DNA of 64,000 nucleotides from a virus: positions 32,001-96,000 of the IMG/VR virus record IMGVR_UViG_3300044846_005309. One strand, given 5' to 3'. Under the pieces are notes generated by a model. That model was not told the DNA's origin. It saw only the letters and a program-made list of their open reading frames with translations, and did no database searches. Positions 6,450 to 55,073 of this stretch are shown here, piece by piece (the stretch's first letter is position 1; every line of letters starts with the position of its first letter). The position numbers and the translations under genes are program-made.

Positions 6450-7106
6450 TTATAAAATAAAGTAGGGAGAATTAAAGTTATAACTCTTGATGTATTTTAT
6501 TTTTGCGTCTCGTGTGTAAAGATTATTATATTTTATATTAAAAAGCATTTTTTCTTCAAGTGGCTCGCTATTTTCAAACTCTGTTGAAGAAAAGTCTCCA
6601 GTAATCCAGTTTACGAATAACGTACATGAATTACGAACTAAATAGAGATTCTTAGTACGTGTATTAAACGCCCAAAACGCAAATGTACCTTCTAGTTTTT
6701 CGGGACCATTTTCTATACCAAACACATCTAACATACGAGGAATAATGCAGCTATCTGTTTTTCCTGCAAAATCTTCTTCAGGATAGTGTTGTTTAGTTAA
6801 TTTTTCAAAATTACTAATAATACCGTTATGAGCTACAGCCCAGTCTTTATAGAAAAAAGGGTGATTATTGTCTTCTTCAAAACCTTTAGTTTCTACAGTA
6901 GGTCCTCGCGAATGGTAAAGATAATATATTTTAGTGTAGTTATTTGAACTAAACGGCGTTTTAAAATCCCCTAAAACTTTTTTATAGGCCTGCACCCCTG
7001 TATCATCTAGTAACATAGAACCAGAGCTATAAAAGCCTCTATTAAGGTTATCTTTATAGAGTTTATACGCTCTATCTTTATCAGTTGAGCCTGCAATACC
7101 GCACAT
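6450..7106 (-). CDS. stand-alone class II (Ntn) glutamine amidotransferase adjacent to queC
   Basis: N-terminal MCGI, HSRGPT, NNHPF, HNGII.NF, TDS motifs. Confidence 0.85.
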   Translation of the reverse strand: MCGIAGSTDKDRAYKLYKDNLNRGFYSSGSMLLDDTGVQAYKKVLGDFKTPFSSNNYTKIYYLYHSRGPTVETKGFEEDNNHPFFYKDWAVAHNGIISNFEKLTKQHYPEEDFAGKTDSCIIPRMLDVFGIENGPEKLEGTFAFWAFNTRTKNLYLVRNSCTLFVNWITGDFSSTEFENSEPLEEKMLFNIKYNNLYTRDAKIKYIKSYNFNSPYFIL

Positions 7107-7109: not shown

Positions 7110-7820
7110 TTAGTATGGCTTACAATCAAATTTACTCCACGGTATTTCTTTTGCGTATTTAATTGGGTCTATAGTTTTATTATCTATAAAAGCTTTAATA
7201 CGCGCTGCGCATGATACGCATTCCCCGCAGGCTACTTCTTTACCTTCATAACAAGTATGGGTATGTGCAAAATTAACATTCAAATCAATACCTTCTTTTA
7301 CAACTCGATCTTTAGACCACGTCATGAATGGAGCATTTACTTTAATTGTATTTTTACGGTTAAGATTATATACATCATTGACTTTGTTTAGGAACAAAGA
7401 AGTACAGTCCCAATAACCAGAAAAGTCATCCGTTTGCACAGCCCCGTAAAATAAATCATTAGCTCCAATACTTTCAGCCCAGCCCGCAGCGGTTGTTAAA
7501 AGCAAAAGATTTCTAAAAGGTACATAACTCAAAGGCTGAGCGTTACCGATATCTTCTCGAGCCTTAGGAATCTTAAGATCAGTATTAGTAAGAGCGGACA
7601 TTTTGGATATCTCTCTAAAGAAATCCATATTGATGAGTTTATGTTCAGTCACGCCTACGTTTAGAGCTTGTGTTTTTGCACAATCAACTTCTCGGATAAT
7701 CCGTTGCCCGTAATTAAATGTAATAGCATACACTTCATTGTATGCAAGTCGTTTTGTAACATGGTGTAAAAGAATAGTACTATCCATGCCACCTGAAAGG
7801 ATGACGAGCGCTTTAGACAT
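7110..7820 (-). CDS. queC: 7-cyano-7-deazaguanine synthase QueC
   Basis: SGGMDS PP-loop, FNYGQR, YVPFRN, GYWDC, TCY..ACGECVSC zinc site. Confidence 0.95.
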   Translation of the reverse strand: MSKALVILSGGMDSTILLHHVTKRLAYNEVYAITFNYGQRIIREVDCAKTQALNVGVTEHKLINMDFFREISKMSALTNTDLKIPKAREDIGNAQPLSYVPFRNLLLLTTAAGWAESIGANDLFYGAVQTDDFSGYWDCTSLFLNKVNDVYNLNRKNTIKVNAPFMTWSKDRVVKEGIDLNVNFAHTHTCYEGKEVACGECVSCAARIKAFIDNKTIDPIKYAKEIPWSKFDCKPY

Positions 7821-11428: not shown

Positions 11429-12139
11429 TTACTTTTTGTGCAAGTTTTTATTGGATAATCCTAGTTGTTCTGAAAGAAAAGCTTGTTCATTAATGTCTTT
11501 AGTGATAAGGCTTTCGCTTTCCCCATAGAATTCACACTTCTCATTAATATACATTTTTAACATAGCTATTCTTTCTAGCGGATTACCGTAGATCGGTATA
11601 ATCGGCGGGCAGTCTTCATTATCGAAGAATTTAGAGCCGCCTTTTTGCCATGCTTTGTATAGCATTTCAAATAACACACCTATTTCCCCTCTATAAACCG
11701 GATCAATATCTCTATGCTCTTTAACAGTTAAAGTTACATCATTTTCTCTAACTAAAGGAAGATAAAATAAAACAGAATAAAATTTAAGCGCATGTCTAAC
11801 CGTAATTACGCATTTGTCAATAAAAGCTTCATCAATATCCGAAGTTTGTTTATCGTATAACCATAAAGAGTAAACCAAATTATCTAGAGGGGTACGGTCG
11901 AAAATCATTTTTTTAGATCCAACATTACCCATAGCTTCGTCAACAAGAAAATTAAGTATCGCTTCCTGAGACTCTTTAGTACCGTGCTTATTAATCGGTA
12001 GATTCTTTTCTTTAATTAAATCTCTATAAGTCTTAGTAGGGCGCTGCAACTGAGGCCATTGTAAAGTCATATCCTCAATAAGAGTACTCTTACCCACACA
12101 TTGTGTACCAATAACCCCTATCTTTTTTAATTTTGTCAT
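11429..12139 (-). CDS. P-loop nucleoside monophosphate kinase-like protein (AAA_28/NadR-type)
   Basis: GTQCVGKST Walker A; FDRTPLD. Confidence 0.75.
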   Translation of the reverse strand: MTKLKKIGVIGTQCVGKSTLIEDMTLQWPQLQRPTKTYRDLIKEKNLPINKHGTKESQEAILNFLVDEAMGNVGSKKMIFDRTPLDNLVYSLWLYDKQTSDIDEAFIDKCVITVRHALKFYSVLFYLPLVRENDVTLTVKEHRDIDPVYRGEIGVLFEMLYKAWQKGGSKFFDNEDCPPIIPIYGNPLERIAMLKMYINEKCEFYGESESLITKDINEQAFLSEQLGLSNKNLHKK

Positions 12140-12363: not shown

Positions 12364-12522
12364 TTATATAATTTCTTCCGCTATACCAATAATTTCAGCC
12401 AAAATCAATAATAGCCCGCCAGCAACTATATTACCCCCTATAAAAGCCGCCCCTGCAATAATACGCAGTATACTTTTAATAATACTAAGCTTAAAATGCC
12501 ATTCTGGATTAGGTGCTTCCAT
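12364..12522 (-). CDS. small two-TM membrane protein (not in the ORF track)
   Basis: MEAPNPEWHFKLSIIKSILRIIAGAAFIGGNIVAGGLLLILAEIIGIAEEII*; fills the gap exactly between queE and the next gene. Confidence 0.7.
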   Translation of the reverse strand: MEAPNPEWHFKLSIIKSILRIIAGAAFIGGNIVAGGLLLILAEIIGIAEEII

Positions 12523-12526: not shown

Positions 12527-13330
12527 TTATACCTTTAAGGCTTTGTCCCAGATTTGCAAATGCATACGATTGCTAAATTTGAAACAATACTTCTTGCATA
12601 TCTCAGCTACCACCGGACCGACTTTAAGTAGTTCCTCTCGAGAGCCGCACATAGGCATAATCCAGACTAACTCGCTAGGTACCGCAACATCAGGATTGTT
12701 TACGTACTTTTCTAGTACTTCAGTAAGATCAGATTCTTGCTTAGCAACAAATTTAAAGCACGCTCTCTTATCAACAAGATTACGAAGTACATCTGGTTTA
12801 AAACGCTTTTCTTCAGGGTCTCCGTTACTAGAGAGTTTAGGGGACGTGGTATAGGATACAACGCAACCTAGTTGATGCCACATTTCATCTGGCATGATAG
12901 TACCATTAGTTTCAAAGTCAATTTTAAGTACCGGCTCTTGAGGCTCTGCAGCCATAAAGTCGAATTCGTTTTCTAAGTTAAAAAAACCCCAGCGGTCTAT
13001 AATGAATCTAACAAACTCAATAAGATTCTTTTGTTGAATAAAAGGCTCTCCACCGGTAAGCTTGAGAATAGCGCCCTGCTTAAGCATCTCATGATAGTCA
13101 TGCTTTTCAAAAAGCTGGGCTATTTCTTCAAAAGTCATTCTGTTCTTTTTAGACCAGCTTACATAACTATCACAACCGAAAGGAGCATCCTCACTCTTAA
13201 ACCCAATACAAGTGAGGTTGCACATAGATAGTCTCATAAACACAGAAGGATAACCGATGTATCGGCCTTCCCCCTCGAGAGTATAAAAGACAAAATCGTC
13301 AGAAAGAAAAAGAGTTTTATCAGCGCTCAT
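12527..13330 (-). CDS. queE: 7-carboxy-7-deazaguanine synthase QueE (radical SAM)
   Basis: FYTLEGEG..IG.PSVFMRL..CNLTC...CD, LTGGEP, ETNGT, SPKL, RMHLQIW. Confidence 0.93.
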   Translation of the reverse strand: MSADKTLFLSDDFVFYTLEGEGRYIGYPSVFMRLSMCNLTCIGFKSEDAPFGCDSYVSWSKKNRMTFEEIAQLFEKHDYHEMLKQGAILKLTGGEPFIQQKNLIEFVRFIIDRWGFFNLENEFDFMAAEPQEPVLKIDFETNGTIMPDEMWHQLGCVVSYTTSPKLSSNGDPEEKRFKPDVLRNLVDKRACFKFVAKQESDLTEVLEKYVNNPDVAVPSELVWIMPMCGSREELLKVGPVVAEICKKYCFKFSNRMHLQIWDKALKV

Positions 13331-13332: not shown

Positions 13333-13785
13333 TTAAATATTAAAGTACTTTTGATAAATTGCACTGTTTTGTTCGTGCTCCCAAACTTCTACTTTTTCAC
13401 ACCAGCAACGATTATCAGTCATATTTCTGACATAAGAATCAGCAAGATCGCAGCAAAGCTCAGCAAACTTCTCTATGCCTACCCCGCCATGAAGCACAAC
13501 TAGTTCAATCATTCCCTTACTCTCAAGTAGGTAAAAAGTTTCAAGATCAGGATCTTTACCCCATACTACGGTTTTATGATCAAATGTATTTTCAAGATCT
13601 CTCTTTAGTTCCTTTAGACCACCAAAATCAACTACCCAGTTGTTTTGATCTAGTTCATTGCATACAAACCAAAATTTAGCCTGTAGCCGATAACCGTGAA
13701 TATATTTGCAATGGCTTTTCGCATGAGGTTGGCGGAATGCACATGAACCTAGAGGAATTACTTTAGTGGAATAAAATTTGCCCAT
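13333..13785 (-). CDS. queD: 6-carboxytetrahydropterin synthase QueD
   Basis: HCKYIHGY, WVVDFGGLK, FDHK, VEVWE. Confidence 0.93.
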   Translation of the reverse strand: MGKFYSTKVIPLGSCAFRQPHAKSHCKYIHGYRLQAKFWFVCNELDQNNWVVDFGGLKELKRDLENTFDHKTVVWGKDPDLETFYLLESKGMIELVVLHGGVGIEKFAELCCDLADSYVRNMTDNRCWCEKVEVWEHEQNSAIYQKYFNI

Positions 13786-22850: not shown

Positions 22851-22854
22851 CAGT

Positions 22855-23658: not shown

Positions 23659-23671
23659 AATTAAATATAAC

Positions 23672-24598
23672 ATGCAAACTAAAATTTTAGTTACTGGTGG
23701 TACAGGCATGGTAGGTCGCCATTTAAGAGATTTAGGTCTTTCTGCAATTTATGTAGGCTCTAAACAAGCAGACTTAACAAAATATAATGAAGTAGATGAA
23801 TTATTTAATTTTATCAGGCCCACTACTGTAGTGCATTTAGCTGCAAAAGTGGGTGGTATATTAGATAATATTAAAAACCCTATAAGTTTTTACGAAAACA
23901 ATATAGATATTAATACAAATGTAGTTAAATGCGCCTACAAGTATGGGTGTACACGTTTTGTCGGGGTGCTCAGTACTTGTATATACCCCGATAACTTAAA
24001 TCCAGACTGCTACCCTTTAACAGAAGATAAAATACATGACGGACCTCCAACTATAACTAATTTTTCATATGGTTACGCTAAACGTTGTTTAGATGTACAT
24101 CTTAAGTGTTATCAAAAACAACATAATTTGCAGTATAATAGTTTAATACCATGTAATCTTTATTCAGAGTACGATCATTTTGAAGGGGATAAAGCTCATT
24201 TCGTGACTAGTCTTGTACGTAAAATAGCCTTAGCGAAAATCAATAAAAAAGATAGTATAGAACTGTACGGTACGGGTAAGCCTTTAAGACAATTCATGCA
24301 TGCTGAAGATTTTGCAAGAGCAATTATACAGTATACAAAAGGGGAATATTATGCGGATTTAAACATAGCAACACCTGAAGTTTATACTATTAAACAAATA
24401 GCTGAAATAGCTCTTGAAGCATGTGATGCAACTTCTTTAAAAATTAACTGGGATAGGTCTAAGCCTGACGGGCAACACAGAAAAGATGTCACTGATAATA
24501 AGTTTAAACAATTTTTTCCACACTTTAAATATACTACTTTAAAGGATGGTATAAAGAGAACTTTTGATAATTATTATCATGGTATGGTTATTAAATGA
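23672..24598 (+). CDS. GDP-L-fucose/GDP-colitose synthase (Fcl/ColC-like epimerase-reductase)
   Basis: GGTGMVG, HLAAKVGGI, STCIYP, YGYAKR, PCNLY, GTGKPLRQF, KPDG. Confidence 0.9.
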   Translation: MQTKILVTGGTGMVGRHLRDLGLSAIYVGSKQADLTKYNEVDELFNFIRPTTVVHLAAKVGGILDNIKNPISFYENNIDINTNVVKCAYKYGCTRFVGVLSTCIYPDNLNPDCYPLTEDKIHDGPPTITNFSYGYAKRCLDVHLKCYQKQHNLQYNSLIPCNLYSEYDHFEGDKAHFVTSLVRKIALAKINKKDSIELYGTGKPLRQFMHAEDFARAIIQYTKGEYYADLNIATPEVYTIKQIAEIALEACDATSLKINWDRSKPDGQHRKDVTDNKFKQFFPHFKYTTLKDGIKRTFDNYYHGMVIK

Positions 24599-25757
24599 AT
24601 CTAATTTTACTTGGAAGGACCGTCTTAAGATTTGCGCGTTCTTCTTAAACAAAAAGAAATTCTGGACAATGGCAGATGAGGTCTCAAAATTTGAGACTAG
24701 AATGGCTGAGTATGTTGGCAGTAAATATGCTATTTTTGTATCGAGTGGCTCAACTGCGAACACTTTAATAGCTATGCACTTAAAAGATAGGTTAAGGGCA
24801 GAAGGAAAAAATATCGTTATTTTTCCTTCTACTACATGGATTACTTCAGTTTCCCCGTTTCTTAGAGAAGGCTTTACCCCGCACTTTATAGATATTACTT
24901 TAAAAGACTTAAGTTTAGATTTAGAAAAACTCGAAGAATATTTAAAACTTAACTGCAATAAAGTTGCATGTGTATTTGTAACGAGCTTATTAGGTTTCAG
25001 TCCAAATATAGATAAACTTTATGATTTAAGTGTAAAATATGGAGTCAAAATAATGTTAGACAACTGCGAGTCTACTTTCACTCGTTATAAAGAACGTAAT
25101 ATTTCTTTTTATTTTACCTCTACTACTAGTACATATTTTGGTCATCAAATACAAAGTGTAGAGGGCGGTTTTGTGTTTACAAACTGCAAAAAAGAAAGGG
25201 ATTACTTTCTTATGGCCAGAAATCACGGAATGGTACGCAGTCTTTCTACGGAAGAAGATAAAATTCCTTTCCGCAATCTAGATGTTGATAGTCGTTTTGA
25301 TTTTAATTTATTAGGAAATAATTTTAGAAATACTAATATTAACGCATACATTGGTCAGTTAGACATTAAAAGAGCAACCAAATATACTAAAAAAAGAAAA
25401 GAATTGTATAGTTTTTATTTAGATAAAGTAAAAAATATTTCCCTTTTACAAACAATTGAAATGAGAACAGGATTATACGAAGATGTACCTTTTTCTTTTC
25501 CTATAATTTTTACCGAAGGTGGAATAAAAAAAGATATTGAAACCCGGGTACTCGGTGCAGATATTGAAACTAGGCCTATTATTTCAGGCAATCTTTTAAG
25601 ACAAACTTGTCTTAAAGAAATTGCAGATGCTAGGTCTTTTCCAGTAAGCGATTTTATACATAAAAATGGTTTTTATGTAGGGCTACATAATAGAGTTACT
25701 AAAAAACACGTTACTGAGCTTGTAGAAATTCTAAAAACCGGCCTGTCATATTTTTAA
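24579..25757 (+). CDS. PLP-dependent DegT-family enzyme, ColD-type (GDP-4-keto-6-deoxymannose 3-dehydratase-like)
   Basis: SSGSTAN, DNCES, YFGHQIQSVEGG with His in place of the Schiff-base Lys, RNHG, ETRPIISGN. Confidence 0.8.
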   Translation: MVWLLNESNFTWKDRLKICAFFLNKKKFWTMADEVSKFETRMAEYVGSKYAIFVSSGSTANTLIAMHLKDRLRAEGKNIVIFPSTTWITSVSPFLREGFTPHFIDITLKDLSLDLEKLEEYLKLNCNKVACVFVTSLLGFSPNIDKLYDLSVKYGVKIMLDNCESTFTRYKERNISFYFTSTTSTYFGHQIQSVEGGFVFTNCKKERDYFLMARNHGMVRSLSTEEDKIPFRNLDVDSRFDFNLLGNNFRNTNINAYIGQLDIKRATKYTKKRKELYSFYLDKVKNISLLQTIEMRTGLYEDVPFSFPIIFTEGGIKKDIETRVLGADIETRPIISGNLLRQTCLKEIADARSFPVSDFIHKNGFYVGLHNRVTKKHVTELVEILKTGLSYF

Positions 25758-26561
25758 CCAACTCTCTGGTATTACATCTTTGGGATCAATAACACCTTCA
25801 TAGGCAGGTCCAAACCATTTTTTAGGCCCGACCACTATTTTTTTAGGGTTAATATTTAACCAAGCAGCCCACCAGCTAAATGAACTGTTAGCTATTACGT
25901 TATGCGCGCACATACTCATTGCACACATATCTTCAAAAGGATTAGTAAGCGTAGAAAAAAATACTCTTGAATCTTGTGCAAAAGCTTGTTTGCACCATTC
26001 AATATCATCAGAGAAAATTAAATAATATTTAGTTTTAATTGACTTACAAGCTTTTATATAATACTCCTGCGGCATAAGTGGGTGATGTTCTTGTTTATGT
26101 ACGTAATCCCCTCTACGTAAATGTAAGGAGGTCGTATTTTCAGGCTCTATATTTAACTGCTTAAACAATTGCACAGCTTGTTCCTTAATTTCAGGCTTGA
26201 ATTGAAAATTGTCTATAATGTAATTTTTATTATGAATGAAATATTTTTCACTTTGAAAATAGCCAGCTAAATCAGTATTATCAGGCTGTTCTAGTACTTT
26301 ACTATCATAATGAAACCAGCGCTCATTATAAACGTTTAATTTCATCTGGCCTAGTTCTTCTATAGTTATAGAAGGAGTTTTAATAATAAAACCTTCTGCT
26401 ATAGATCTGTTCATACAATTATAATTAATATCAAAGTATGAAGGCCTTAAAGGAATTTTTACTTCATACCCTTTACTTTTACCTAAAGACAATAAAACTG
26501 CATACTGAAACATAGAATTGCCTATGTTACCGTGCACCCCCAATTTAGAGTATGTTATCAT
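25746..26561 (-). CDS. GT11 alpha-1,2-fucosyl/colitosyltransferase
   Basis: GNIGNSMFQYA, GYFQSEKYF, HLRRGDY, FSDDIEW, NSSFSWWAAWL. Confidence 0.9.
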   Translation of the reverse strand: MITYSKLGVHGNIGNSMFQYAVLLSLGKSKGYEVKIPLRPSYFDINYNCMNRSIAEGFIIKTPSITIEELGQMKLNVYNERWFHYDSKVLEQPDNTDLAGYFQSEKYFIHNKNYIIDNFQFKPEIKEQAVQLFKQLNIEPENTTSLHLRRGDYVHKQEHHPLMPQEYYIKACKSIKTKYYLIFSDDIEWCKQAFAQDSRVFFSTLTNPFEDMCAMSMCAHNVIANSSFSWWAAWLNINPKKIVVGPKKWFGPAYEGVIDPKDVIPESWLKI

Positions 26562-26572
26562 TTTAAAAAAAA

Positions 26573-27325
26573 TTATTCTATCCAATTCCAATTTTTAATT
26601 TCTTGTTTTAATTCTTCTTTAGTTAATTTTGAAACTCTGTTGTATTCATTTAAGTTAGAAGCAATATATGGATTGTGGTTATAAGAAGTATCTTTTCTTT
26701 CATGAGTTAAGTGCAATAAAGGATCTGAGACTCTACCAAACTTATAACCAAGTCGGCTGAATCTTGTATAAATTTCATTATCTTCATACCCCAGCCCTTT
26801 AAAGTTTTCGTTGGCGCCACCGCCCTCCCAAAAAACAGAAGCATTAAAAAAGACCGCTCCACCAACTGAATGCGGGTTAAATAAAGTGCAATGCTCTAAA
26901 GTAACATGTTCTGTACTTGCTGTACTTTTAATTTTTTCATGAAATTGTTTAGGTACATCGTAAAACCGACCATCATATGGATAAACAATATCAGCATCCT
27001 TATTCATAATAATTTTTGTAGCTTTTTTAAGCTGGTTAGGAGTAAACAAAACGTCTGCATCATAATGCGCGATTATAGAGGTTTTCGCGTATTTTGCAGC
27101 TAAATTTACACCCCGTTGCCTATTAAAAAATTCTTCTGTTTTACAAAAAACGTACCCGCAGTTGTATTTATTTGCTAATTTAGGGGATACGTCTTGCTCA
27201 CAAAGCACAATATTTGTGTCAAAGTTGGTTTGCAAATATGGGATAGTAATATCTAAATTTTTAACTCTATCTTCACTATCTACTTTAATTGCAATTAAAA
27301 ATGTAACGTTTTTTAAGTCTACCAT
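26573..27325 (-). CDS. GT2/GT7C-like glycosyltransferase
   Basis: HYDADV, GG.NENFKGLGYED, HLTH. Confidence 0.8.
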   Translation of the reverse strand: MVDLKNVTFLIAIKVDSEDRVKNLDITIPYLQTNFDTNIVLCEQDVSPKLANKYNCGYVFCKTEEFFNRQRGVNLAAKYAKTSIIAHYDADVLFTPNQLKKATKIIMNKDADIVYPYDGRFYDVPKQFHEKIKSTASTEHVTLEHCTLFNPHSVGGAVFFNASVFWEGGGANENFKGLGYEDNEIYTRFSRLGYKFGRVSDPLLHLTHERKDTSYNHNPYIASNLNEYNRVSKLTKEELKQEIKNWNWIE

Positions 27326-27373
27326 ATTTTTATTTACAGTAGATTTAAAATTATTACACTCTAATATTAGCAT

Positions 27374-29197
27374 ATGCGGTATATTCATTTTAAGAGGCTT
27401 AAAGCTACTAATTTTCTTTCTATTGGTAAGAAGCCTGTTGAAGTTGTATTCCGTCCCGGTCTTAATATTATTACCGGCCGTAATTTTGATAAAGCTGATC
27501 GAGCTAACGGAGTAGGCAAATCAACTATTGCAGATGCAATGCATTTTGCATTGTATGGAAGCACCATAAGAGAACTAAAGAAAGAAAACATAGTAAATGA
27601 TCAAGCCCCGGATAGTCTTTGTGAAGTAGAACTCGAGTTTGTTTGCATACAAGGAGAAACTAGTAACACTTATAAGATAGTAAGAACGCTCAATCCAACC
27701 AAATGTTATCTCTTTATGAACGATCAAGAAATAACTCGTTCAGGGGTACCGCAAACTACTGAGTATATTGTTGATATAATTAAAACTTCTTCTGAAGTTT
27801 TCCAGAATAGTGTAGTAATGACTATTAACAACACTGTACCTTTTATGGCGCAGAAAAAAGTTGAAAAGCGCAAATTCATTGAAGGCATACTCGGGCTTGA
27901 AGTGTTCGGTAATATGCTGCTTTTTGCACGTCATGACTACAATGAAACCAAACGTAATCTAGAAGTAGAAACAACTAAATTTGAAGAGATAAATCGCTCT
28001 TTACAGGATAATATAAAACAAAAAGAACTTTACGACGCAAACAAAGAAAAGAGACTTGAAACGCTTAAAGTACGTCAAACTAATAATAGTAATGAGCTTT
28101 TTCTGCTTAAAGAAAAATTAGATAAGTTTGAGCCGGTAGATAGTGAAGCTAAAGCAAAACTAGAAGAAGAGCTTAAAAATTTTACTAATGCTAAAAAAAT
28201 ATTAGCCGGAAATTTGCTAGAAACGGAAAGACTTATTACCGAGGCTAACACCCATATTAAAATTAATACCGATCGTAATAAAAAAATAAAAAAAGTAAAC
28301 AGTCTATGCCCCCATTGCGGAAAAGATTTGGCCGAAGCTGTCAATACTCAATACGAAAAAGATAAAAATGATTGTATAAGAGAAATTGAAAAGTACGAAG
28401 AAGTACTAAAAACTAATACCCCTAAACACAAGGATATTACTAGTAAAATTAGTAAATTAGAAGAAAATTTAATTAAACTGCAAAACAGGTTTAACGAGTT
28501 TGTTATACGCAAAAAAGAAATAGAAAATATAAATTCAAGAATTACCCAGTTAGACGCATGGCAACAGCAACTATCTATAGATATAGACAATCTTAATAAG
28601 GATTCAAATAATTTTGAAAAGATTATTCTAGATATAACGTCCCGCATAAACGAAACCAAAACTGGTATAACCGCTTTGCAGACACGTATTGAAATAATTG
28701 AAAACGCTAAACTAATAGTTTCAGAAGAAGGAGTAAAATCCTATATAGTTAAGAAGATTATTGAAGTATTAAACACTAGATTAGGGTTCTACTTGAAAAA
28801 ACTTGAAAGTAACAGTATTGTGCGTTTTAATGAGTTTTTTGAAGAAATTATTACTAACGAGCGAGGCAAAGAATGTAGCTATTTTAATTTTTCAGGAGCT
28901 GAGCGTAAGGCTATAGATCTAGCCATGCTTTTTACTTTTCAGGATATAAGAAGAGCACAGGCTCAAGTATGTCTTAATTTATCTATGTTTGACGAGCTTT
29001 TTGACTCGTCTTTGGATGAAAAAGGTATTGAGTTAGTACTTGATATTCTTAAAGAAAGAGTAGATAACTATAATGAAGCTATTTATATTATTTCTCACCG
29101 TAAAGAAAGTAAAAAGTACTGTATAGGCGGAGAAATAATCTTCTTAGTAAAGAAAAACGGCATTACCACACGAACAACTAACTATGACTTATCCTAA
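27374..29197 (+). CDS. recombination ATPase subunit (T4 gp46/Rad50-like)
   Basis: NFLSIG, NGVGKST, CPHC hook, FSGAE, FDELFDSSLD, ISH. Confidence 0.92.
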   Translation: MRYIHFKRLKATNFLSIGKKPVEVVFRPGLNIITGRNFDKADRANGVGKSTIADAMHFALYGSTIRELKKENIVNDQAPDSLCEVELEFVCIQGETSNTYKIVRTLNPTKCYLFMNDQEITRSGVPQTTEYIVDIIKTSSEVFQNSVVMTINNTVPFMAQKKVEKRKFIEGILGLEVFGNMLLFARHDYNETKRNLEVETTKFEEINRSLQDNIKQKELYDANKEKRLETLKVRQTNNSNELFLLKEKLDKFEPVDSEAKAKLEEELKNFTNAKKILAGNLLETERLITEANTHIKINTDRNKKIKKVNSLCPHCGKDLAEAVNTQYEKDKNDCIREIEKYEEVLKTNTPKHKDITSKISKLEENLIKLQNRFNEFVIRKKEIENINSRITQLDAWQQQLSIDIDNLNKDSNNFEKIILDITSRINETKTGITALQTRIEIIENAKLIVSEEGVKSYIVKKIIEVLNTRLGFYLKKLESNSIVRFNEFFEEIITNERGKECSYFNFSGAERKAIDLAMLFTFQDIRRAQAQVCLNLSMFDELFDSSLDEKGIELVLDILKERVDNYNEAIYIISHRKESKKYCIGGEIIFLVKKNGITTRTTNYDLS

Positions 29198-30391: not shown

Positions 30392-32956
30392 ATGTACCGT
30401 AACGTTTATTATAGCTCTCGAGACGGGTTGATCCATCTCTTTACTTGGAATGATAAAGGAGAGCGAGTTATCAAGAAGATGGCATTTCAGCCGTATTTTT
30501 ACGTTGAGACGAATTCTGATAACGTAGACGCTGTATCTATCTTTAATACTAAACTAAAGAAAAAGGTTTTTCGCAATAGTTTTGATCGTAATAAAGCTGC
30601 GCAAGATGGAGCTATCAAGCGGCTTTACCATAATATTCAAGTAGAGCAGCAATTTTTAATAGATCAATTTAGTGAACAATACGATAAACCCGAATTTACT
30701 GCTAACCCTATTAAGGTGTGTTTTCTGGATATCGAAGTATTCAGCCCTGATGAATTTCCGGAAGCTAAAGATGCAAAGCACCCTATCAATCTAATTACCA
30801 TCTATGATAATTTATCTAAAACGTTTTACACATGGGGAACTAAGCCGTATACCTCTAAGCGTCAAAATGTAGTATATACAGAATGCTCGAGCGAAGCCGA
30901 TCTTCTAGAAAAGTTTTTAGAGTTTTGGGAGAATGGGTATTACCCGGACATTCTATCAGGGTGGAATACGGACTTTTTCGATTTTCCGTATTTAATTAAC
31001 CGTATTACTAACTTACTCGGGGAAGATGCCGCAAAGCGGTTATCCCCGCTTAAGAGTCTGTGGTGCCGGAAAGGTATTTTTGTAAAGGGTCAAGAACTAG
31101 ACCGCTGGTATATTCATGGCCTTGCAGCTATGGACTATCTTGAAGTCTACAAAGGTTTCGCTCGCGGGTTGCTTGAGTCATATGCTCTCAACTTTGTTGC
31201 GCAGCACGAGCTAGGAGAAGGTAAGTTGGCTATTAACGCAACTAATCTAGCTACTCTTTCAGAGTCTGATTGGAATAATTTTGTAGATTATAACATTCAA
31301 GACGTTGACCTACTTGTGCGTATGGAGAACAAGCTTCAATTCTTTAAGATTATACGTATGTTAGCGTATAAGGGATTAACTAATTTCGAAAGCGCGCTTG
31401 GTAAAGTCTCTATTGTAACTGGCTGCGTCTCCCTAGAAGCCCGTAAACATGGTATGGTTATACCTACGTTTGTAGAAGGGCCCACAAGAGAAGCTATTGA
31501 AGGAGGTTATGTAAGAGATCCTGAACGAGGTCTTAAGACTGCTGTAGTTAGCTACGATGCTAACTCACTATATCCTAATACTATCATTACTCTTAATATC
31601 TCCCCCGAAACTAAGGTAGGTAAAATTGTTAGTAGAGATAATGAAAATACCAACATACTTTTAACGAGTGGTAAAGAGTATAAATTACCTAATGCTAAGT
31701 TTGAACAATTTGTAGCTTTGGAAAAACTGGCTATTTCTAAGGCTAATGTGTTATACACTCAAAAGAAGAAAGGAGTTGTGCCTTCTCTTATTGACGGGCT
31801 ATATGCAGAACGAGTTGCTAACAAAAATCAGTACGTAGAGTATAAGAAAAAACTCAGTAAGTTAATTCCAGATACTGATGATTATAGAGCGTGTAAGACT
31901 TTTATGGAAAGAGCGGATACTATTCAATACGTTATCAAAATTTTGCTTAATTCTATTTATGGTGTTTTTGCTAATAAATTTTCTCCTATTTGCGATAGTG
32001 ATCATGCTGGGAGTATTACTCTCACGGGGCAATCTGTGGTTAAACAAGCAAGTGTTATCCTGGATGAATATGCTAAAACAAGACATAGTATTGGGACTTC
32101 TCTTACTATTTACGGGGATACTGACAGTACTCACATTACTATACAGCCTATACTCGATAAGTTAAAATTAAAAATATTTCAGAATAATAAAGTTACGCCT
32201 GAAGGGTTAGATCTTATTGATAAAGATATGGGGACATATCTTAATGATGAGATTAAAAAGTGGTCTGCTTCAGAGTTCAAATCAGTCGATCCTCGTTATT
32301 TCTTTAAACGAGAATCAATTTGTGATGTAGGGGTGTACCTAGAAAAGAAGCGCTATATTATTCACGTACTCAATGATGAAGGGGCAGACGTAAATAAGTT
32401 TAAATACGTAGGTGTCGAGATTGCTCGTTCTACCACACCTAAAAAAGCTAAAGAACTTATTAAGAAAGTAATTGAAACGTCCCTAGTAATGCAGGACCAG
32501 ATTAATGCTAATAACCTTTACAAGCAAACCTACGAAAGCTTTAAGAAATTACAAATTGATGATATAGCTATTAGAGGGGGGTTAAGTGATTTAGAAAAGT
32601 ATGAGAGTAAATGTGAGTACCCTTTTAAAATTGCTAAAGGCACTCCTAATCACGTAAAAGGTGCAATTTACTTTAATCACCTACTTAGAAAGATGGGTTT
32701 AGATACAAAATACGAAAAAATTACTTCAGGGGGTAAGGTTAAAAAGATTTACGTTGCTCCTAATCGTTACCAAATCGATACGCTTTGCTATACCGCAACC
32801 TACCCAGTAGAATTTACTGAGTTTCAGGTAGATTATATTGAAATGTTTGATACACTTATTAAACCGCCTATCTTAGCAGTTTATGAGGCTATTGGTTGGC
32901 GACTGCCCGATGTTGTTAATGAATCTGAAACCGATCTTTTTTCTTTATTCTCATGA
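30392..32956 (+). CDS. family B DNA polymerase (T4 gp43-like)
   Basis: DIEV exo I, GWN..FFD, YNIQD, YDANSLYP, KILLNSIYG, YGDTDS, KKRY. Confidence 0.96.
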   Translation: MYRNVYYSSRDGLIHLFTWNDKGERVIKKMAFQPYFYVETNSDNVDAVSIFNTKLKKKVFRNSFDRNKAAQDGAIKRLYHNIQVEQQFLIDQFSEQYDKPEFTANPIKVCFLDIEVFSPDEFPEAKDAKHPINLITIYDNLSKTFYTWGTKPYTSKRQNVVYTECSSEADLLEKFLEFWENGYYPDILSGWNTDFFDFPYLINRITNLLGEDAAKRLSPLKSLWCRKGIFVKGQELDRWYIHGLAAMDYLEVYKGFARGLLESYALNFVAQHELGEGKLAINATNLATLSESDWNNFVDYNIQDVDLLVRMENKLQFFKIIRMLAYKGLTNFESALGKVSIVTGCVSLEARKHGMVIPTFVEGPTREAIEGGYVRDPERGLKTAVVSYDANSLYPNTIITLNISPETKVGKIVSRDNENTNILLTSGKEYKLPNAKFEQFVALEKLAISKANVLYTQKKKGVVPSLIDGLYAERVANKNQYVEYKKKLSKLIPDTDDYRACKTFMERADTIQYVIKILLNSIYGVFANKFSPICDSDHAGSITLTGQSVVKQASVILDEYAKTRHSIGTSLTIYGDTDSTHITIQPILDKLKLKIFQNNKVTPEGLDLIDKDMGTYLNDEIKKWSASEFKSVDPRYFFKRESICDVGVYLEKKRYIIHVLNDEGADVNKFKYVGVEIARSTTPKKAKELIKKVIETSLVMQDQINANNLYKQTYESFKKLQIDDIAIRGGLSDLEKYESKCEYPFKIAKGTPNHVKGAIYFNHLLRKMGLDTKYEKITSGGKVKKIYVAPNRYQIDTLCYTATYPVEFTEFQVDYIEMFDTLIKPPILAVYEAIGWRLPDVVNESETDLFSLFS

Positions 32957-33762
32957 TTAAAATCTCACACGAATCCCCTCTTAGTATGCTTGAGATCTCT
33001 CGGACATACAACGATTATGACTATGCTCTGGTACATCTTTTCGAGACTAACCCTGAGTATTTTTCTTTTTTTAAAGAAAGTTTAAAGTTAAACCGAACTG
33101 TTCTTCTAGATAATTCTATTTTTGAACTCGGTGTTGCTTTCGAAACAAAAAAATATATTAATTGGATTAATAATTTGGAGCCTACAGAGTATATTATACC
33201 CGACGTACTTGAAAATTGCGATAAAACCATTCAAGAAGCAAAATACTGGATGGGTGGTGCAATTTTTTCTTGTTATAGTGATTCTGTACCGATCGGAGTT
33301 ATACAAGGTAAGACCTATGCAGAATTTGTTAAATGCTACACTGCTTTAGATTATTTAGGGGTAGAGAAACTAGCTATTTCCTTTGATTATAGTTACTATT
33401 TAACGGTTTTTCCGCATCCTAATAAATGGGTAAGTTATGCCATGGGAAGAGTGATGACTCTAAAAAGACTTTTGGACGATGGTGTCATTAATACCAAGAA
33501 GCCACACCACCTACTTGGCTGCGCACATCCTCGCGAATATAGTTTTTATAACGATCCCTCTTTTAATTGGATCAAGACTTTAGATACTTCATCTCCTATT
33601 GTACACGGTATTAAGAAAGTAGGTTATGGAGATCTTTTTGCAAACTGGACAAAAGAAAAAACTAAACTCGTCGACCTACTAGATTGTGTTCCCGATGAAG
33701 AGCAAGAACAATGGATAGCAGAAAATATAAGAGACTTTAGAAAGTTTGTCCATAATGGATAA
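32953..33762 (+). CDS. dpdA: TGT-fold DpdA-like 7-deazaguanine transglycosylase (DpdA3-like by context)
   Basis: LLDNSIFE, PDV, VIQG, HLLG, LDTSSP TIM-barrel motifs; sits between DNA polymerase and dpdN/kinase/queF. Confidence 0.7.
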   Translation: MIKISHESPLSMLEISRTYNDYDYALVHLFETNPEYFSFFKESLKLNRTVLLDNSIFELGVAFETKKYINWINNLEPTEYIIPDVLENCDKTIQEAKYWMGGAIFSCYSDSVPIGVIQGKTYAEFVKCYTALDYLGVEKLAISFDYSYYLTVFPHPNKWVSYAMGRVMTLKRLLDDGVINTKKPHHLLGCAHPREYSFYNDPSFNWIKTLDTSSPIVHGIKKVGYGDLFANWTKEKTKLVDLLDCVPDEEQEQWIAENIRDFRKFVHNG

Positions 33763-33988
33763 GACGATTGAAACTTTAACTGAAATTGTACGAATTAATT
33801 ATCCACATTTATTAGACGGAGATACAAAAATAATCGACTATTGCTTTTGGAACGCAACAAGCAATAAAGAATTACCCGTCAAAAAACTAGAAAATGTTAA
33901 ATCCTATAAACTTACCCATGACAATTTTGATTTAGTGCTTGTAATTTTTTTCAGTGATAATACAATAGGTTTTAGATTAAAAATATGA
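33755..33988 (+). CDS. hypothetical protein
   Basis: 77-aa ORF coupled to both neighbours. Confidence 0.55.
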   Translation: MDKTIETLTEIVRINYPHLLDGDTKIIDYCFWNATSNKELPVKKLENVKSYKLTHDNFDLVLVIFFSDNTIGFRLKI

Positions 33989-34578
33989 AAAAAGACTTTT
34001 ACTGGAAAGCGCTTTTTTCTCAAAGCGGGTCTGAGATACTAGAGGTTTCAACTCGAGTTGGGCGCTTCCCGAATGCAATTATTACTAACAAGCCTTTAGA
34101 AGATATGGATCGTATTAATCCTAGACTTCTAGAGTTAGCTTTTGATCGGTTTATTTTTATTTCTCAAAAGCCATCGATAGAGGAATACAAAGAATCTATT
34201 AGACGGGCTGATATGGTAACATTACACGGTTTTTTACGTATTTTACCTTCTCAAATTTGTGGCCGTTATAGGATTTTTAATGGTCACCCAGGCCTTATTA
34301 CTAAGTTTCCTGCGCTTAAAGGTAAAGATCCTCAGAAAAAAGTTTGGGATAACTATGCAAATACACCATACAAGCTTCATGGACATGTTATACATGAAGT
34401 TATACCTGAAGTAGATGCTGGTAAGGTTGTTTCTGAAAAACAGTTTTATAGCGAAAACATCTATACCGATTTTAATAATATCGATTCTTATATTGCTAAG
34501 CTGCACAGTCTGGCAATTGAAAATTGGGTTGAGTTTATTAAAAAACGTATTATACTAAATAATTCTTATGCGAAATAA
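33985..34578 (+). CDS. PurN-like formyltransferase (DpdN-like preQ1 formyltransferase)
   Basis: FSQSGS, LHGFLRILP, NGHPGL, HEVIPEVDAG Formyl_trans_N motifs; no other purine biosynthesis genes in the window. Confidence 0.8.
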   Translation: MKKDFYWKALFSQSGSEILEVSTRVGRFPNAIITNKPLEDMDRINPRLLELAFDRFIFISQKPSIEEYKESIRRADMVTLHGFLRILPSQICGRYRIFNGHPGLITKFPALKGKDPQKKVWDNYANTPYKLHGHVIHEVIPEVDAGKVVSEKQFYSENIYTDFNNIDSYIAKLHSLAIENWVEFIKKRIILNNSYAK

Positions 34579-35137
34579 TTACAAAGCATGTATTTGTGGT
34601 GCGCATTCTCAAGGTAAAACTACATTAGTTAATGCTCTTAAAAAAGAAACTTTTTTAACGAGTGAATGTCATTTTTCCTTTCGTACCAATCTTACAAGGG
34701 GTTTGAAAGACTTAAACATACCTATTAATGAGAACGGCACGTCTTTGACACAATACTTAGTCATGGCAAGGCATTTAGAATATGCTACTGCTCCAGGTAA
34801 TTGGATTTTAGATCGCGGAGCTTTAGATGGCATTGCTTATACGGGGTATTTTTACGAAAAAGAACAAGTAAAAAAGGAAGTATATGAAGCTGCTGTAGAA
34901 ATATATAGAGATGTAATTAAGTTGTATGACAAGATTTTTTATATTGTACCTGAGTTAAATCTAGAAGATGATGGGGTACGTAGTACAAATAAAGAGTTTT
35001 TTGAAAGCGTGGTTAAGCAGTTTGAGTTCTACGTTAAGCATAACTCTATGCCTTCTGACAAATTTAAATTCGTTATGGGCTCTAAACAAGAGCGAGTAGA
35101 AACTGTAATTAATGAAATTAAAAAAGACTTTCAATGA
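34568..35137 (+). CDS. P-loop NMP kinase-like protein (AAA_28)
   Basis: GAHSQGKTT, LDRGALD, EDDGVRS. Confidence 0.75.
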   Translation: MRNNYKACICGAHSQGKTTLVNALKKETFLTSECHFSFRTNLTRGLKDLNIPINENGTSLTQYLVMARHLEYATAPGNWILDRGALDGIAYTGYFYEKEQVKKEVYEAAVEIYRDVIKLYDKIFYIVPELNLEDDGVRSTNKEFFESVVKQFEFYVKHNSMPSDKFKFVMGSKQERVETVINEIKKDFQ

Positions 35138-36060
35138 ATACTAATAATATCGATAAAGTACTCGGTCAAAGAGTAGATTCTCCTACTACCTATACGCCCG
35201 ATATTCTCGTACGAGAAGAGCGTCAACGTAACCGTACATATCTTAATATCCAGAATCAAAACCTGCCATTCGTGGGTTATGATATATGGAATGGTTATGA
35301 GTGTAGTGCAATGACTGAAAACGGATTGCCTGTCGCGTGCGTAGCTAAAGTTGTTTATACTGCAACTAATCCTTATATCGTCGAATCTAAGTCAATGAAG
35401 CTATATTGGAACGGTTTTAACATGCAGCCTATGGGTAAAACTGTAAAGGAAGTTCTTAAAAATATTAAGACTACTGCAGAAAAAGATCTTAGCGCTCTTC
35501 TAGAGACTGACGTAAAAGTCCAGTTGTTCTCTCAAGTACTCAACGATAATATTACTGAAGATTACGTATCATCTAGAGCTCGCTGGGAAATTAAATATAC
35601 CAACGACTGTTGGGGTACTCTTGAAACTCTGCCCGGCGCGGATAAAATTAAGTTTGAGGTTTTTAACGAAGATTCTAACTTACTTGAAGTTTACTCTGAG
35701 GAAAAAGAAGGGTTCGATTATTTTAGAAGCTCCTTACTTCGCTCTAATTGCAAGATTACTAAGCAGCCTGACTCAGGAGACATTTATATCTATTATAAGG
35801 GTAATTACAAGATAACCCCTTACTCTCTTCTTAAGTGGATCGTTTCATTTCGGAATGAATGTCACTTTCACGAAGAAATTTGTGAAGCAGCGTATAAGCG
35901 TCTCTGGGATGTATTGCACCCTAAGGAACTTCTTGTAACTTGTTTCTATGCCCGGCGTGGTGGTTGGGATATTGTACCGACTCGTGCTAATAAAAAGAGT
36001 CTGCTTGATAAAGACCTTATTAACCCCAAGTCTCCTTATTTTAAGTTCCCTCGTCAATAA
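35134..36060 (+). CDS. queF: bimodular NADPH-dependent preQ0 reductase QueF
   Basis: VESKSMKLY QueF motif, LLRSNC.IT.QPD, FHEEICE, YARRGG, C-terminal PRQ. Confidence 0.92.
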   Translation: MNTNNIDKVLGQRVDSPTTYTPDILVREERQRNRTYLNIQNQNLPFVGYDIWNGYECSAMTENGLPVACVAKVVYTATNPYIVESKSMKLYWNGFNMQPMGKTVKEVLKNIKTTAEKDLSALLETDVKVQLFSQVLNDNITEDYVSSRARWEIKYTNDCWGTLETLPGADKIKFEVFNEDSNLLEVYSEEKEGFDYFRSSLLRSNCKITKQPDSGDIYIYYKGNYKITPYSLLKWIVSFRNECHFHEEICEAAYKRLWDVLHPKELLVTCFYARRGGWDIVPTRANKKSLLDKDLINPKSPYFKFPRQ

Positions 36061-36095: not shown

Positions 36096-36443
36096 ATGGA
36101 CAATAAAATCATTGTATTTCTTGATAATATTCAGCGTACTATCGTAGCCACGCTTGTATCTGATAATGGTACTAGTATTACCGTTACTAAGCCTGCTATT
36201 CTTAATGTGAGCCCTACCCCTGAAAAGAAGCTCCAGGTGCAGCTGTATCCAGTTATCTTTAGAGAGTTTCTGAAGGATAGAGATGTTTTTCCTACCTGGA
36301 CTTACAGCAAGACTGCGGTTACTACAACCGACAGCCTAGATCTCGAGCCTAACTTGATTCTTCAGTATAATGAGATGTTTAAGGTAGTTAAGAACGAGCC
36401 TGCTCCTACTATCAAGCTGTTCGACGCAGACGAGAACAACTAA
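36096..36443 (+). CDS. conserved T4-like hypothetical (Sm-like fold candidate)
   Basis: 115-aa beta-rich protein ending 'LILQYNEMF'. Confidence 0.55.
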   Translation: MDNKIIVFLDNIQRTIVATLVSDNGTSITVTKPAILNVSPTPEKKLQVQLYPVIFREFLKDRDVFPTWTYSKTAVTTTDSLDLEPNLILQYNEMFKVVKNEPAPTIKLFDADENN

Positions 36444-43067: not shown

Positions 43068-43405
43068 TGGCTAATAAAATTACAACACAGAGTTATTTTA
43101 TAAAACGACTTAAAGATAGCGGTTATGTCGTTTATAAAATATTTGACGAGTATAATGAAGCTGATCCCCGCTCGTGGACTGTTATGATTGATCCAGGTAA
43201 TGCATCTATTTTTTGTACTTGTTACGTGAACGATCAATCTATGTTTGGAGAGACTTATTTTGAAATCTACGATGGTGGTCAATATATACCTGAAAAGTTT
43301 AAGTTGAAGACAGATTCAATTGAGGTTATAATAAGCTATTTAGTTAAACATGGAATCAATAACAAATCAGACAACTACAACAGCAAGTCGAATTCAAACA
43401 TATAA
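43067..43405 (+). CDS. hypothetical protein
   Basis: 112-aa ORF. Confidence 0.6.
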   Translation: MANKITTQSYFIKRLKDSGYVVYKIFDEYNEADPRSWTVMIDPGNASIFCTCYVNDQSMFGETYFEIYDGGQYIPEKFKLKTDSIEVIISYLVKHGINNKSDNYNSKSNSNI

Positions 43406-43415
43406 TTTTACCAAT

Positions 43416-44078
43416 ATGAGCAAAAACGGTCTACAACACCCCCTTCTGCCTACTGCTAATAGTAGTATGCTTGTTAGTGATAGCGAGAAGAAGGAGATTA
43501 TTGAAAAAGCGGCTATAGCTTATGAAGGCTTTCTTGATGCTCTACGCATAGACTGGCGCAACGATGTAAATAGTGCGGACACACCTCGTCGTGTCGCTAA
43601 GTCTTATGTTTGCGATCTTATTAAGGGCTGCTATGAAGGACCCCCTAAGATCACTACATTTCCTTCTGATGGATATGACGGTATTGTAAGTCAAATGAAT
43701 ATCCCGGTTACGTCTATGTGCTCTCATCACCATCTTGCTTTTACTGGTGTAGCGCATGTTGCTTATATCCCTGATAAAAACGGTCAAGTTATTGGACTTT
43801 CTAAATTAAATCGCATTGTTGAACATTATGCACGTAGGCCTCAAATACAAGAAGGACTGACAGTGCAGGTACATAATGCTATTAATGAACTCTGTAAGGG
43901 TAACCAAGGGGTTGCCGTTGTTCTTAAGTGTGCACATACTTGCGCATGCCATCGCGGTGTAAAACATCACGGTTGTTCTATGATCACTTCGAAGCTTTCC
44001 GGTAGTTTTATGAACGAAGGGGCAGCTCGCAAAGAGTTTTACGATTTTATTGCTTCTGCAGAGCGTAGCAGTAAATAA
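43416..44078 (+). CDS. folE: GTP cyclohydrolase I FolE
   Basis: TPRRVAK, SMCSHH, GLSKLNR, ARRPQIQE, HTC...RGV. Confidence 0.95.
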   Translation: MSKNGLQHPLLPTANSSMLVSDSEKKEIIEKAAIAYEGFLDALRIDWRNDVNSADTPRRVAKSYVCDLIKGCYEGPPKITTFPSDGYDGIVSQMNIPVTSMCSHHHLAFTGVAHVAYIPDKNGQVIGLSKLNRIVEHYARRPQIQEGLTVQVHNAINELCKGNQGVAVVLKCAHTCACHRGVKHHGCSMITSKLSGSFMNEGAARKEFYDFIASAERSSK

Positions 44079-53050: not shown

Positions 53051-53124
53051 TGACTCGTGGTGTAACGGTAGCACAAGAGACTTTGACTCTCTTTGTTGGG
53101 GTTCGAATCCCTACGAGTCAGCCA
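53051..53124 (+). tRNA. tRNA-Gln(TTG)
   Basis: U1-A72, AGAGA-CTTTGAC-TCTCT. Confidence 0.92.
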
Positions 53125-53158
53125 TTTGAAAAATAAGTCTTTTTTGGTAAATGTTAGT

Positions 53159-54375: not shown

Positions 54376-54378
54376 ATT

Positions 54379-54993: not shown

Positions 54994-54998
54994 TTTAC

Positions 54999-55073
54999 GC
55001 GTGAGTAGCTCAATGGTAGAGCACCTCGTTGCCAACGAGGATGTTGCAGGTTCGAGTCCTGTCTCACGCACCA
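54999..55073 (+). tRNA. tRNA-Gly(GCC)
   Basis: CCTCG-TTGCCAA-CGAGG. Confidence 0.92.

Follow-up and report, generated by a model that had tools for sequence, protein, structure and literature searches.

A polymerase-linked 7-deazaguanine cassette

The window analysed here comprises 64 kb of the 119,783-base IMG/VR record IMGVR_UViG_3300044846_005309 (CheckV completeness 57%), and immediately behind its DNA polymerase gene lies a five-gene cassette that, judging from its gene content, is probably a DpdA3/DpdN/QueF system that puts 7-(formylaminomethyl)-7-deazaguanine (fdPreQ1) in place of guanine in virion DNA. The record is that of an uncultured T4-like myophage; it encodes gp15, gp20, gp23, gp25, a tail sheath protein, UvsY, and UvsW-like and gp46/47-like proteins, together with gp32, UvsX, a DnaB-like helicase, the ribonucleotide reductase small chain, PhoH and Hsp20. 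What is new here is the linkage of a P-loop kinase to DpdA3, the persistence of that kinase in loci that are without DpdN or QueF, a P-loop neighbour of DpdA3 in phage phiST, and natural fusions of DpdA3 to DpdN.

The gene upstream of the cassette encodes a gp43-type family B DNA polymerase (30392..32956, + strand; PF00136 9e-23, PF03104 4e-17, phrog_262 5e-186), and the five genes behind it, all on the + strand, each overlap their neighbour and are translationally coupled. They are, in order, DpdA3 (ORF269; 32953..33762; phrog_19058 1e-45), a putative minimal TGT-fold transglycosylase of 269 aa (TGT being tRNA-guanine transglycosylase); a small conserved open reading frame (ORF) of 77 aa, counted from its likely start at ATG 33755 (33755..33988); DpdN, a PurN-like formyltransferase (33985..34578; PF00551 1.6e-7, TIGR00639 1.8e-9); a P-loop kinase of the nucleoside or nucleoside monophosphate (NMP) kinase class (34568..35137; AAA_28 6e-11, phrog_2107 2e-24); and a bimodular QueF, the reductase that converts preQ0 to preQ1 (35134..36060; PF14819 1.8e-26, PF14489 1.7e-16). 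The gp43 stop codon overlaps the DpdA3 start in an ATGA sequence, and ATGA overlaps recur at the junctions of the small ORF with DpdN and of the kinase with QueF; the remaining overlaps are of 8 nt, between ORF269 and the small ORF, and of 11 nt, between DpdN and the kinase. A full preQ0 pathway lies in the window away from the cassette, composed of FolE, GTP cyclohydrolase I (43350..44078, + strand; PF01227 3e-46; 58% identical to its counterpart in the immuto phages described below), and, on the - strand, QueD (13333..13785; PF01242 1.3e-17, phrog_2389 7e-36), a QueE-like radical SAM enzyme (12527..13330; phrog_2076 1.2e-40, weak Fer4_12) and QueC (7110..7820; PF06508 3e-61). All of the elements named in the original prediction, a model's interpretation of the bare sequence that had called a DNA polymerase-linked cassette making fdPreQ1, were recovered where it had placed them by Pfam, PHROG and pairwise comparison, with family matches for all four of the preQ0 genes that it had located elsewhere in the window.

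The same order of DpdA3, small ORF, DpdN, kinase and QueF is found in the Flavobacterium phage immuto_2-6A, to which the proteins are 47% (DpdA3), 41% (DpdN), 35% (kinase) and 40% (QueF) identical, with pairwise E-values of 4e-30 to 3e-85 that exclude chance; immuto also encodes FolE, QueD, QueE and QueC, like this window. Cui et al. (NAR 2023, PMC10516641) report that immuto_2-6A DNA is made up of dA, dC, dT and a 324-Da nucleoside, fdPreQ1, their account giving neither dG nor dPreQ1. The gene identities and the connection to this published DpdA3/DpdN system, as originally predicted, are thus well founded in the common order and the 35-47% identity. Data S1 of the same paper lists three uncultured Caudovirales genomes with DpdA3 (filed under DpdA1 in one of them), DpdN, QueF and preQ0 genes, and the fdPreQ1 genotype described here is therefore already published and not new. 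The two systems differ in their polymerases, which is a coupled T4-type PolB here and a family A enzyme about 3 kb downstream in immuto, and in the presence here of a second kinase paralogue and a separate amidotransferase. We found no homologues in this phage of immuto gp208 (MazG-like) or gp211 (phosphoribosyltransferase), and the small ORFs of the two phages are unrelated in sequence.

ORF269 belongs to the DpdA3 class

A tblastn comparison of ORF269 with 50,697 phage records matched only 19 of them, four being Flavobacterium immuto phages (48% identity, the gene annotated as DpdA) and 15 Campylobacter phages, of which 14 have identities of 39.5-41% and CC_R7 one of 25%. Direct comparison with the immuto DpdA (YP_010114477) gives 47% identity (3e-85). 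When the ORF269 family was compared by hhalign with CGPG_00065 of phiST (YP_007673446), the founding DpdA3, the probability was 98% (E 2.7e-13), as against 1.1% for DpdA1 of phage 9g, 27.8% for a profile of six TGT sequences and 5.5% for E. coli Tgt alone. We place ORF269 in DpdA3 because of the immuto and Campylobacter matches and the contrast between phiST and 9g DpdA1.

The relationship to transglycosylases as a whole is seen mainly in the fold. ORF269 matches nothing in Pfam or NCBIfam, and a profile built from 20 of its relatives found nothing relevant among PDB sequences. Its AlphaFold2 model is a TIM barrel with a predicted local distance difference test score (pLDDT) of 90.3, and among 48,161 chains compared by VIA-align the best match is the bacterial DpdA 7ui4 (Z 17.2, root-mean-square deviation 3.4, 234 of 413 residues aligned), followed by ArcTGT (Z 16.9), TGT (16.4) and QTRT2 (15.4). 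The margin over generic TIM barrels is small, with PdxJ at Z 15.2 and other barrels at 13.2 or below; the top 50 Foldseek matches are all TGT or DpdA, with E of about 1e-8. Since links to TGT by sequence only are weak, the identification of ORF269 rests on its fold and its DpdA3 relatives, and it is co-encoded with genes for 7-deazaguanine synthesis.

The invariant motifs among ORF269 and its aligned relatives are LDNSIFE, IPDVLE, VVQGK, HHLLG and LDTSxP, and the weak alignment with TGT (probability 27.8%) pairs VVQGK with IIQG, KPHHLLG with KPRYLMG, and LDTSSP with MFDCVMP. Across 20 sequences of the family, residues D53, D84, Q118 and D211 do not vary. In the same weak alignment D211 pairs with the invariant D264 of Tgt, while D84 is not aligned to Tgt D143; the aspartate of the LDTSxP motif is the putative counterpart of the TGT nucleophile. 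The motif containing D53, LDNSIF, pairs with LDSGAF of 9g DpdA1 in the 1.1%-probability alignment and resembles the first catalytic-aspartate motif. The CxCxxC zinc motif occurs in none of 269 DpdA3-family proteins, and CxCxxC...H is invariant in the six aligned TGTs. On sequence and model DpdA3 is predicted to be the barrel alone, without the zinc subdomain. Bacterial DpdA (7ui4) and phage DpdA1 and DpdA2 have the TGT-type barrel in common with ORF269, and 9g-type DpdA genes likewise adjoin 7-deazaguanine synthesis genes and a polymerase, but these proteins are of 317-413 aa as compared with 269 aa for ORF269, which is without the zinc motif. Isoelectric point was rejected as a discriminator between DpdA3 and TGT, as the medians (5.5 versus 5.4-6.9) do not separate the two.

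A role in tRNA metabolism seems very improbable. On that reading these would be auxiliary metabolic genes that raise the queuosine content of host tRNA; the substrate of the TGT-fold protein would be tRNA, and the DNA would be unmodified. Hutinet et al. (2019) raise such a possibility for phages that have preQ0 genes and no recognised DpdA, but the orthologous immuto cassette goes together with DNA reported to be 100% modified (PMC10516641). ORF269 shares the fold of the tRNA-guanine transglycosylases (PF01702), but it cannot be assigned to that family, as both the Pfam match and the zinc site are missing, and its gene is coupled to that of the replicative polymerase. To our knowledge neither formylation nor a kinase has any place in queuosine synthesis, which also counts against a role in tRNA.

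DpdN, QueF and the identity of the base

DpdN matches PF00551 at 31.7 bits (cut-off 26.1) and is 41% identical to immuto DpdN (5e-46). On its sequence it is a PurN paralogue and not PurN itself; assignment to the PurN (glycinamide ribonucleotide transformylase) equivalog was rejected, as the TIGR00639 score of 37.4 bits is far from the cut-off of 150.1. In an alignment of 15 sequences that includes E. coli PurN, N99, H101, P102 and D144 are invariant, as is the S12/G15 loop (SxxGS), and N99, H101 and D144 presumably occupy the catalytic Asn, His and Asp positions of PurN; at one position of the N-terminal PurN loop N is replaced by E. The protein groups with immuto DpdN by identity and is co-encoded with DpdA and with the genes from FolE to QueF, which is how DpdN has been recognised in print.

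The QueF domains score 93 bits (PF14819) and 61 bits (PF14489), and the protein is 40% identical to immuto QueF, with which its ESKSMKLY and SNC motifs align; we take ESKSxKLY to be the QueF motif and SNC to hold the catalytic cysteine. The match to TIGR03138 (2.6e-63) reaches 214 bits, below the cut-off of 293.

This QueF score, and identities to immuto of only 35-47%, leave room for a different DNA base, which could be unformylated dPreQ1, a partially formylated mixture, or a product of diversion of preQ0 towards the archaeosine base by the amidotransferase. The last of these draws on a class-II glutamine amidotransferase gene directly downstream of QueC (6450..7106, - strand; GATase_6 1.5e-11), which invites comparison with the Gat-QueC of PMC10516641, defined in a legend there as QueC to which a class-II amidotransferase domain is fused. 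Relatives also vary the tailoring step (L070, L082 and L096, discussed below). Set against this are the PurN catalytic residues kept in DpdN, the occurrence of DpdN near DpdA3 in 55 of 58 loci and even fused to it, the QueF motifs, and the immuto phage itself, in which, with this gene set, no dPreQ1 is detected according to PMC10516641. We therefore consider a different base unlikely, though appreciably less so than a tRNA role.

The amidotransferase of this phage is separate from QueC, not fused to it, and a QueC gene followed by an amidotransferase gene is also present in a second viral lineage (for example in L046 and L050); it may possibly supply ammonia to QueC or make an amidino base. 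Between QueE and a second kinase-like gene lies a short ORF (12400-12519, - strand), whose product matches a 56-58-aa ORF adjoining QueE in that second lineage (L046, L050).

Abundance and genomic contexts of DpdA3

Among 4,212 candidate proteins, 3,931 are relatives of DpdA3 with E-values of 1e-3 or better (3,190 representatives at the 50% level), and IMG/VR contains at least 536 confirmed relatives among 597 matched stretches. Contexts were surveyed in the best 80 loci of these at least 536, and in 40 of the 80 gp43 lies directly upstream of DpdA3, as in the T4-like phage studied here. A second lineage among the 80 has the order QueE, FolE, DpdA3, DpdN, kinase, QueF, QueC, amidotransferase and QueD, and other contexts are immuto-like or are variants without DpdN and/or QueF (L070/L071, L082). 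Nine DpdA3 loci from species genomes are all contigs of metagenome-assembled genomes (MAGs) with mixed taxon labels. Two proteins, P0146 and P0251 (447 aa), which come from an NCBI contig in one case and a Logan contig in the other, are natural fusions with DpdA3 as the N-terminal and DpdN as the C-terminal part; the extra parts of two longer forms, P0149 and P0242, gave no informative PDB match.

In L070, a T4-like locus, DpdN and QueF are absent from a run of gp43, DpdA3, the small ORF, the kinase, orf115 and UvsX (10001-11603), and FolE is replaced by FolE2 (GCYH-IB; L070:19018-20091), which matches N. gonorrhoeae FolE2 at 1e-15 and, as its best match, a UPF0343 chain at 1.3e-19; from this gene content it should be a natural variant with a different 7-deazaguanine. 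In L082, a locus without DpdN, the kinase (L082:6123-7079) has a 140-residue C-terminal extension with a weak GNAT similarity (E 0.0023, below the cut-off), and its product may be an acyl rather than a formyl derivative of preQ1.

The small ORF has homologues of 40-58% identity (82% in L004) at the same position in T4-like loci and is kept even in the T4-like relative without DpdN and QueF. Similarly, orf115, which lies between QueF and UvsX (36096..36443) and has no family match, is conserved at 53-73% in all of the T4-like relatives, even the one in which DpdN and QueF are missing. Either might have been a hidden MazG, but neither has a Pfam match and their sequences are not suggestive.

A kinase linked to DpdA3

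The kinase is 35% identical to its immuto orthologue and 34% identical to that of the Campylobacter phage CP220, both of which are annotated as 'thymidylate kinase'. We do not adopt that label, as Pfam returns AAA_28 and no thymidylate kinase family, NCBIfam returns nothing, and in a comparison of its profile with PDB sequences thymidylate kinase (7e-3) falls behind NadR ribosylnicotinamide kinase (1e-6) as well as deoxynucleoside kinase (2.5e-4). The structural model (pLDDT 88.4) is closest by VIA-align to NadR (Z 16.9 and 16.7), followed by human deoxyguanosine kinase (15.2), vaccinia thymidylate kinase (14.7) and deoxyadenosine kinase (14.6); by fold, NadR ribosylnicotinamide kinase, deoxyguanosine kinase and thymidylate kinase are within about 2 Z units of one another. 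From these profile and fold neighbours it appears to be a small-molecule nucleoside or NMP kinase. Residues invariant in 15 sequences are G11, S14, G16, K17, T19, R44, D82, R83, D87, E129, D135, R138 and S139, which encompass Walker A, DR(x) and LID-type arginine motifs. A second, paralogous AAA_28 kinase-like gene of 236 aa lies downstream of QueD and QueE (11429..12139, - strand; AAA_28 8e-7, phrog_2107 5e-12) and could possibly provide a second phosphorylation step.

Linkage was assessed in the 58 closest loci that have at least 1.5 kb of sequence downstream of DpdA3 (56 from IMG/VR together with immuto and CP220), and a kinase homologue is present within 1.4 kb downstream in all 58. By comparison, DpdN is present in 55 of the 58, and QueF in 53 of the 55 with at least 2.5 kb downstream. 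Among more distant MAG loci the kinase is found in four of six that can be evaluated; the only evaluable exceptions, L101 and L102, are Clostridia-labelled MAG contigs, the PolB of L101 bearing an intein. The kinase is also retained where DpdN and/or QueF are absent, as in CP220, L070, L082 and L096, and it thus goes with DpdA3 and not with the 7-substituent.

Matches to the kinase in the 50,697 phage records are confined to the four immuto phages, 14 Campylobacter phages and 35 Streptomyces phages with weak similarity (26-27%), and no AAA_28 kinase match was found in those records outside the DpdA3 and Streptomyces phages; all 18 matches better than 1e-9 are in DpdA3 phages. In the Streptomyces phage StarPlatinum (L094:4616-6630) the kinase relative is grouped with a SLOG protein and an FkbM-type methyltransferase, and a MazG-like gene adjoins a DnaE-type polymerase; this group may be another nucleotide-level modification module. 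The Streptomyces 'methyltransferase' is not a hidden DpdA3, since hhalign gives a probability of 0.07% and it is an FkbM methyltransferase.

The other characterised DpdA3 phages have comparable neighbours. CP220 (dADG) and phiST (dDG) each have a DpdA3 homologue (CP220 YP_009169190 is about 40% identical to ORF269; phiST is the hhalign match given above) and are without DpdN and QueF, their final bases being different as reported in PMC10516641. In both a P-loop kinase-like gene adjoins DpdA3 and an HD or MazG gene is close by. In CP220 an HD-plus-P-loop fusion lies directly upstream of DpdA3; in phiST an AAA_18 P-loop protein (9.4e-7), non-homologous to the kinase of this phage, is directly beside DpdA3, with MazG (4.8e-6) two genes away; and in immuto a PRA-PH/MazG-like protein and a protein with a phosphoribosyltransferase domain are encoded near DpdA3. 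The word 'kinase' is absent from the main text and supplement of Cui et al. 2023 (PMC10516641) and from Hutinet et al. 2019, in the portions of these sources that we searched, and in the literature searched for the terms DpdA3 and fdPreQ1, Cui et al. is the sole relevant source.

The level at which guanine is exchanged

FolE, QueD, QueE and QueC make preQ0 from GTP, and QueF reduces preQ0 to preQ1. In the route that we tentatively favour, the four phage enzymes would supply preQ0, with ammonia perhaps coming from the adjacent amidotransferase, and QueF would yield preQ1 as the free base. DpdA3 would then work on a free deoxynucleoside or deoxynucleotide rather than on completed DNA, exchanging its guanine for the 7-deazaguanine base, and DpdN would formylate the aminomethyl group, the substrate of PurN itself being a 5-phosphoribosyl aminomethyl compound. 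The linked kinase, perhaps with the paralogue at 11429-12139, would phosphorylate the product towards the triphosphate, and gp43 would incorporate the fdPreQ1 triphosphate.

Nucleotide-pool base replacement has precedents in the hydroxymethyl-dC of T4 and the 2-aminoadenine of S-2L, in which a base-altering enzyme is paired with a dedicated kinase, and in relatives with a dNTP pyrophosphohydrolase, beside the replication genes. The system described here would differ from these in that its base-altering enzyme would be a TGT-fold transglycosylase, unprecedented at the nucleotide level, and in that this record yielded no dGTP-clearing enzyme. The kinase linkage and the DpdA3-DpdN fusions provide comparative support for exchange in the nucleotide pool, and we prefer this route as one that would account for the kinase, for its persistence across different 7-substituents and for the presence of MazG and HD genes near DpdA3 in the three phages named above. 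It would also account for the completeness of replacement, for the ADG nucleoside in the cytoplasm of CP220-infected cells (as cited in PMC10516641) and for the loss of the zinc subdomain. According to the same paper, CP220, phiST and immuto are completely modified, as compared with 30% at most for the other DpdA classes. Modified dGTP as an intermediate was proposed by Crippen et al. 2019, as cited in Hutinet et al. 2019.

The alternative is that the product is the same and that replacement is post-replicative: gp43 would use dGTP, and DpdA3 would then exchange every G in the DNA, possibly at the replisome, with DpdN acting either on the free base or on DNA and the kinase being a co-travelling enzyme of general dNMP or nucleoside salvage. 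Polynucleotides are the substrates of all characterised TGT and DpdA enzymes, and in structure ORF269 comes nearest to a DNA preQ0 insertase. Insertion after replication is what Cui et al. propose, and their supplement describes the DpdN surface as mildly positive, such that it could bind DNA. The original prediction had taken the linkage to the polymerase as a pointer to the nucleotide pool, but this does not discriminate, because DpdA1 of 9g also adjoins a clamp and a polymerase gene; 9g reaches up to 27% replacement by dG+ (Hutinet et al. 2019), and the DpdAs that have been tested insert at the DNA level (PMC10516641). Replacement after synthesis does not, however, offer a role for the kinase beside DpdA3 in all 58 close loci and four of the six distant ones, or for the P-loop neighbour in phiST, and it leaves unexplained why kinase matches better than 1e-9 in cultured phages are confined to those with DpdA3 and why DpdA3 should have MazG or HD genes close by in three characterised phages. 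The zinc subdomain is also gone, and attempts to obtain DpdA3 activity in E. coli failed, as reported in PMC10516641.

Several further observations weigh against exchange in the nucleotide pool, or against the fdPreQ1 assignment on which it builds. We know of no enzyme of the TGT superfamily that acts on mononucleotides, and the sequence link between DpdA3 and TGT is itself weak (the 27.8% hhalign probability, the missing Pfam TGT match, and PdxJ at Z 15.2). Pfam scans of the 119.8-kb record brought up no member of the MazG or HD families, nor did any turn up in five related T4-like records, these being 26-65% complete. The 58 linkage loci stem from few lineages and are not independent; in L101:3983-7332 and L102:4001-7640, where DpdA3 lies between a helicase and PolB, there is no kinase within 4 kb; and weak kinase relatives occur in Streptomyces phages that are without DpdA3. 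The N to E change means that the DpdN loop is no proof of a phosphate-bearing substrate, and with identities to immuto of only 35-47% the product could differ. Finally, insertion after replication is the model put forward in the sole DpdA3 paper, with DpdN possibly a DNA-binding protein (PMC10516641).

Weighing all of these, we put action of DpdA3 on nucleosides or nucleotides at almost an even chance, and action on DNA as a strong contender that falls somewhat below that, with other possibilities taking up the rest. These judgements concern the route, those on a different base and on a tRNA role concern the product, and the two sets overlap. Were the nucleotide-pool route correct, for which the prospects are nearly balanced, DpdA3 would be the first TGT-fold transglycosylase to act on free deoxynucleosides or deoxynucleotides, with a dedicated kinase feeding the polymerase.

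Host and other genes of the record

A megablast search with the sequence gave no match, and gp43 is at most 32% identical to that of any cultured phage. The window encodes a ferredoxin-dependent bilin reductase (50450-51124) and a heme oxygenase (57047-57574); the nearest relative of the reductase is in Pelagibacter phage Mosig (33% identity, as compared with 23-27% for cyanophages), and because it is nearer to Mosig than to cyanophage PcyA/PebS the bilin genes are not a marker of a cyanobacterial host. Neither psbA nor any other photosystem family turned up in Pfam scans of the record.

A DUF366 protein (4456-5037, - strand; 9e-22) shares its run of minus-strand genes with a glycosyltransferase, the amidotransferase and QueC. 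Sugar-modifying genes are unusually many, at 20476-27388 and 53093-55779 of the window and at 22390-23487, 26974-28035, 96039-97975 and 118324-119016 of G000, and they include a carbamoyltransferase, an epimerase/dehydratase, a DegT aminotransferase, UDP-galactopyranose mutase, methyltransferases, and glycosyltransferases of families 2, 10, 11 and 25 and of the GlcNAc type. A 318-aa protein of the IMP dehydrogenase/GMP-reductase family (59994-60950; 3e-52) could, from its family, direct purine flux either to GTP, the deazaguanine precursor, or away from it.

Implications for complete base replacement

The cassette is abundant in environmental viromes and moves between PolB and PolA replisome backbones. 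For 100% replacement of G by a 7-deazaguanine in phages the sources discussed above offer two competing routes, modified dGTP and post-replicative exchange, and the near-invariant pairing of DpdA3 with a kinase makes the nucleotide-pool idea directly testable with a few recombinant proteins. The natural tailoring variants, formyl, possibly acyl, and none, are cases for comparison. If exchange does take place in the nucleotide pool, these phages would be a source of enzymes for making 7-substituted 7-deaza-dGTPs and restriction-resistant DNA.

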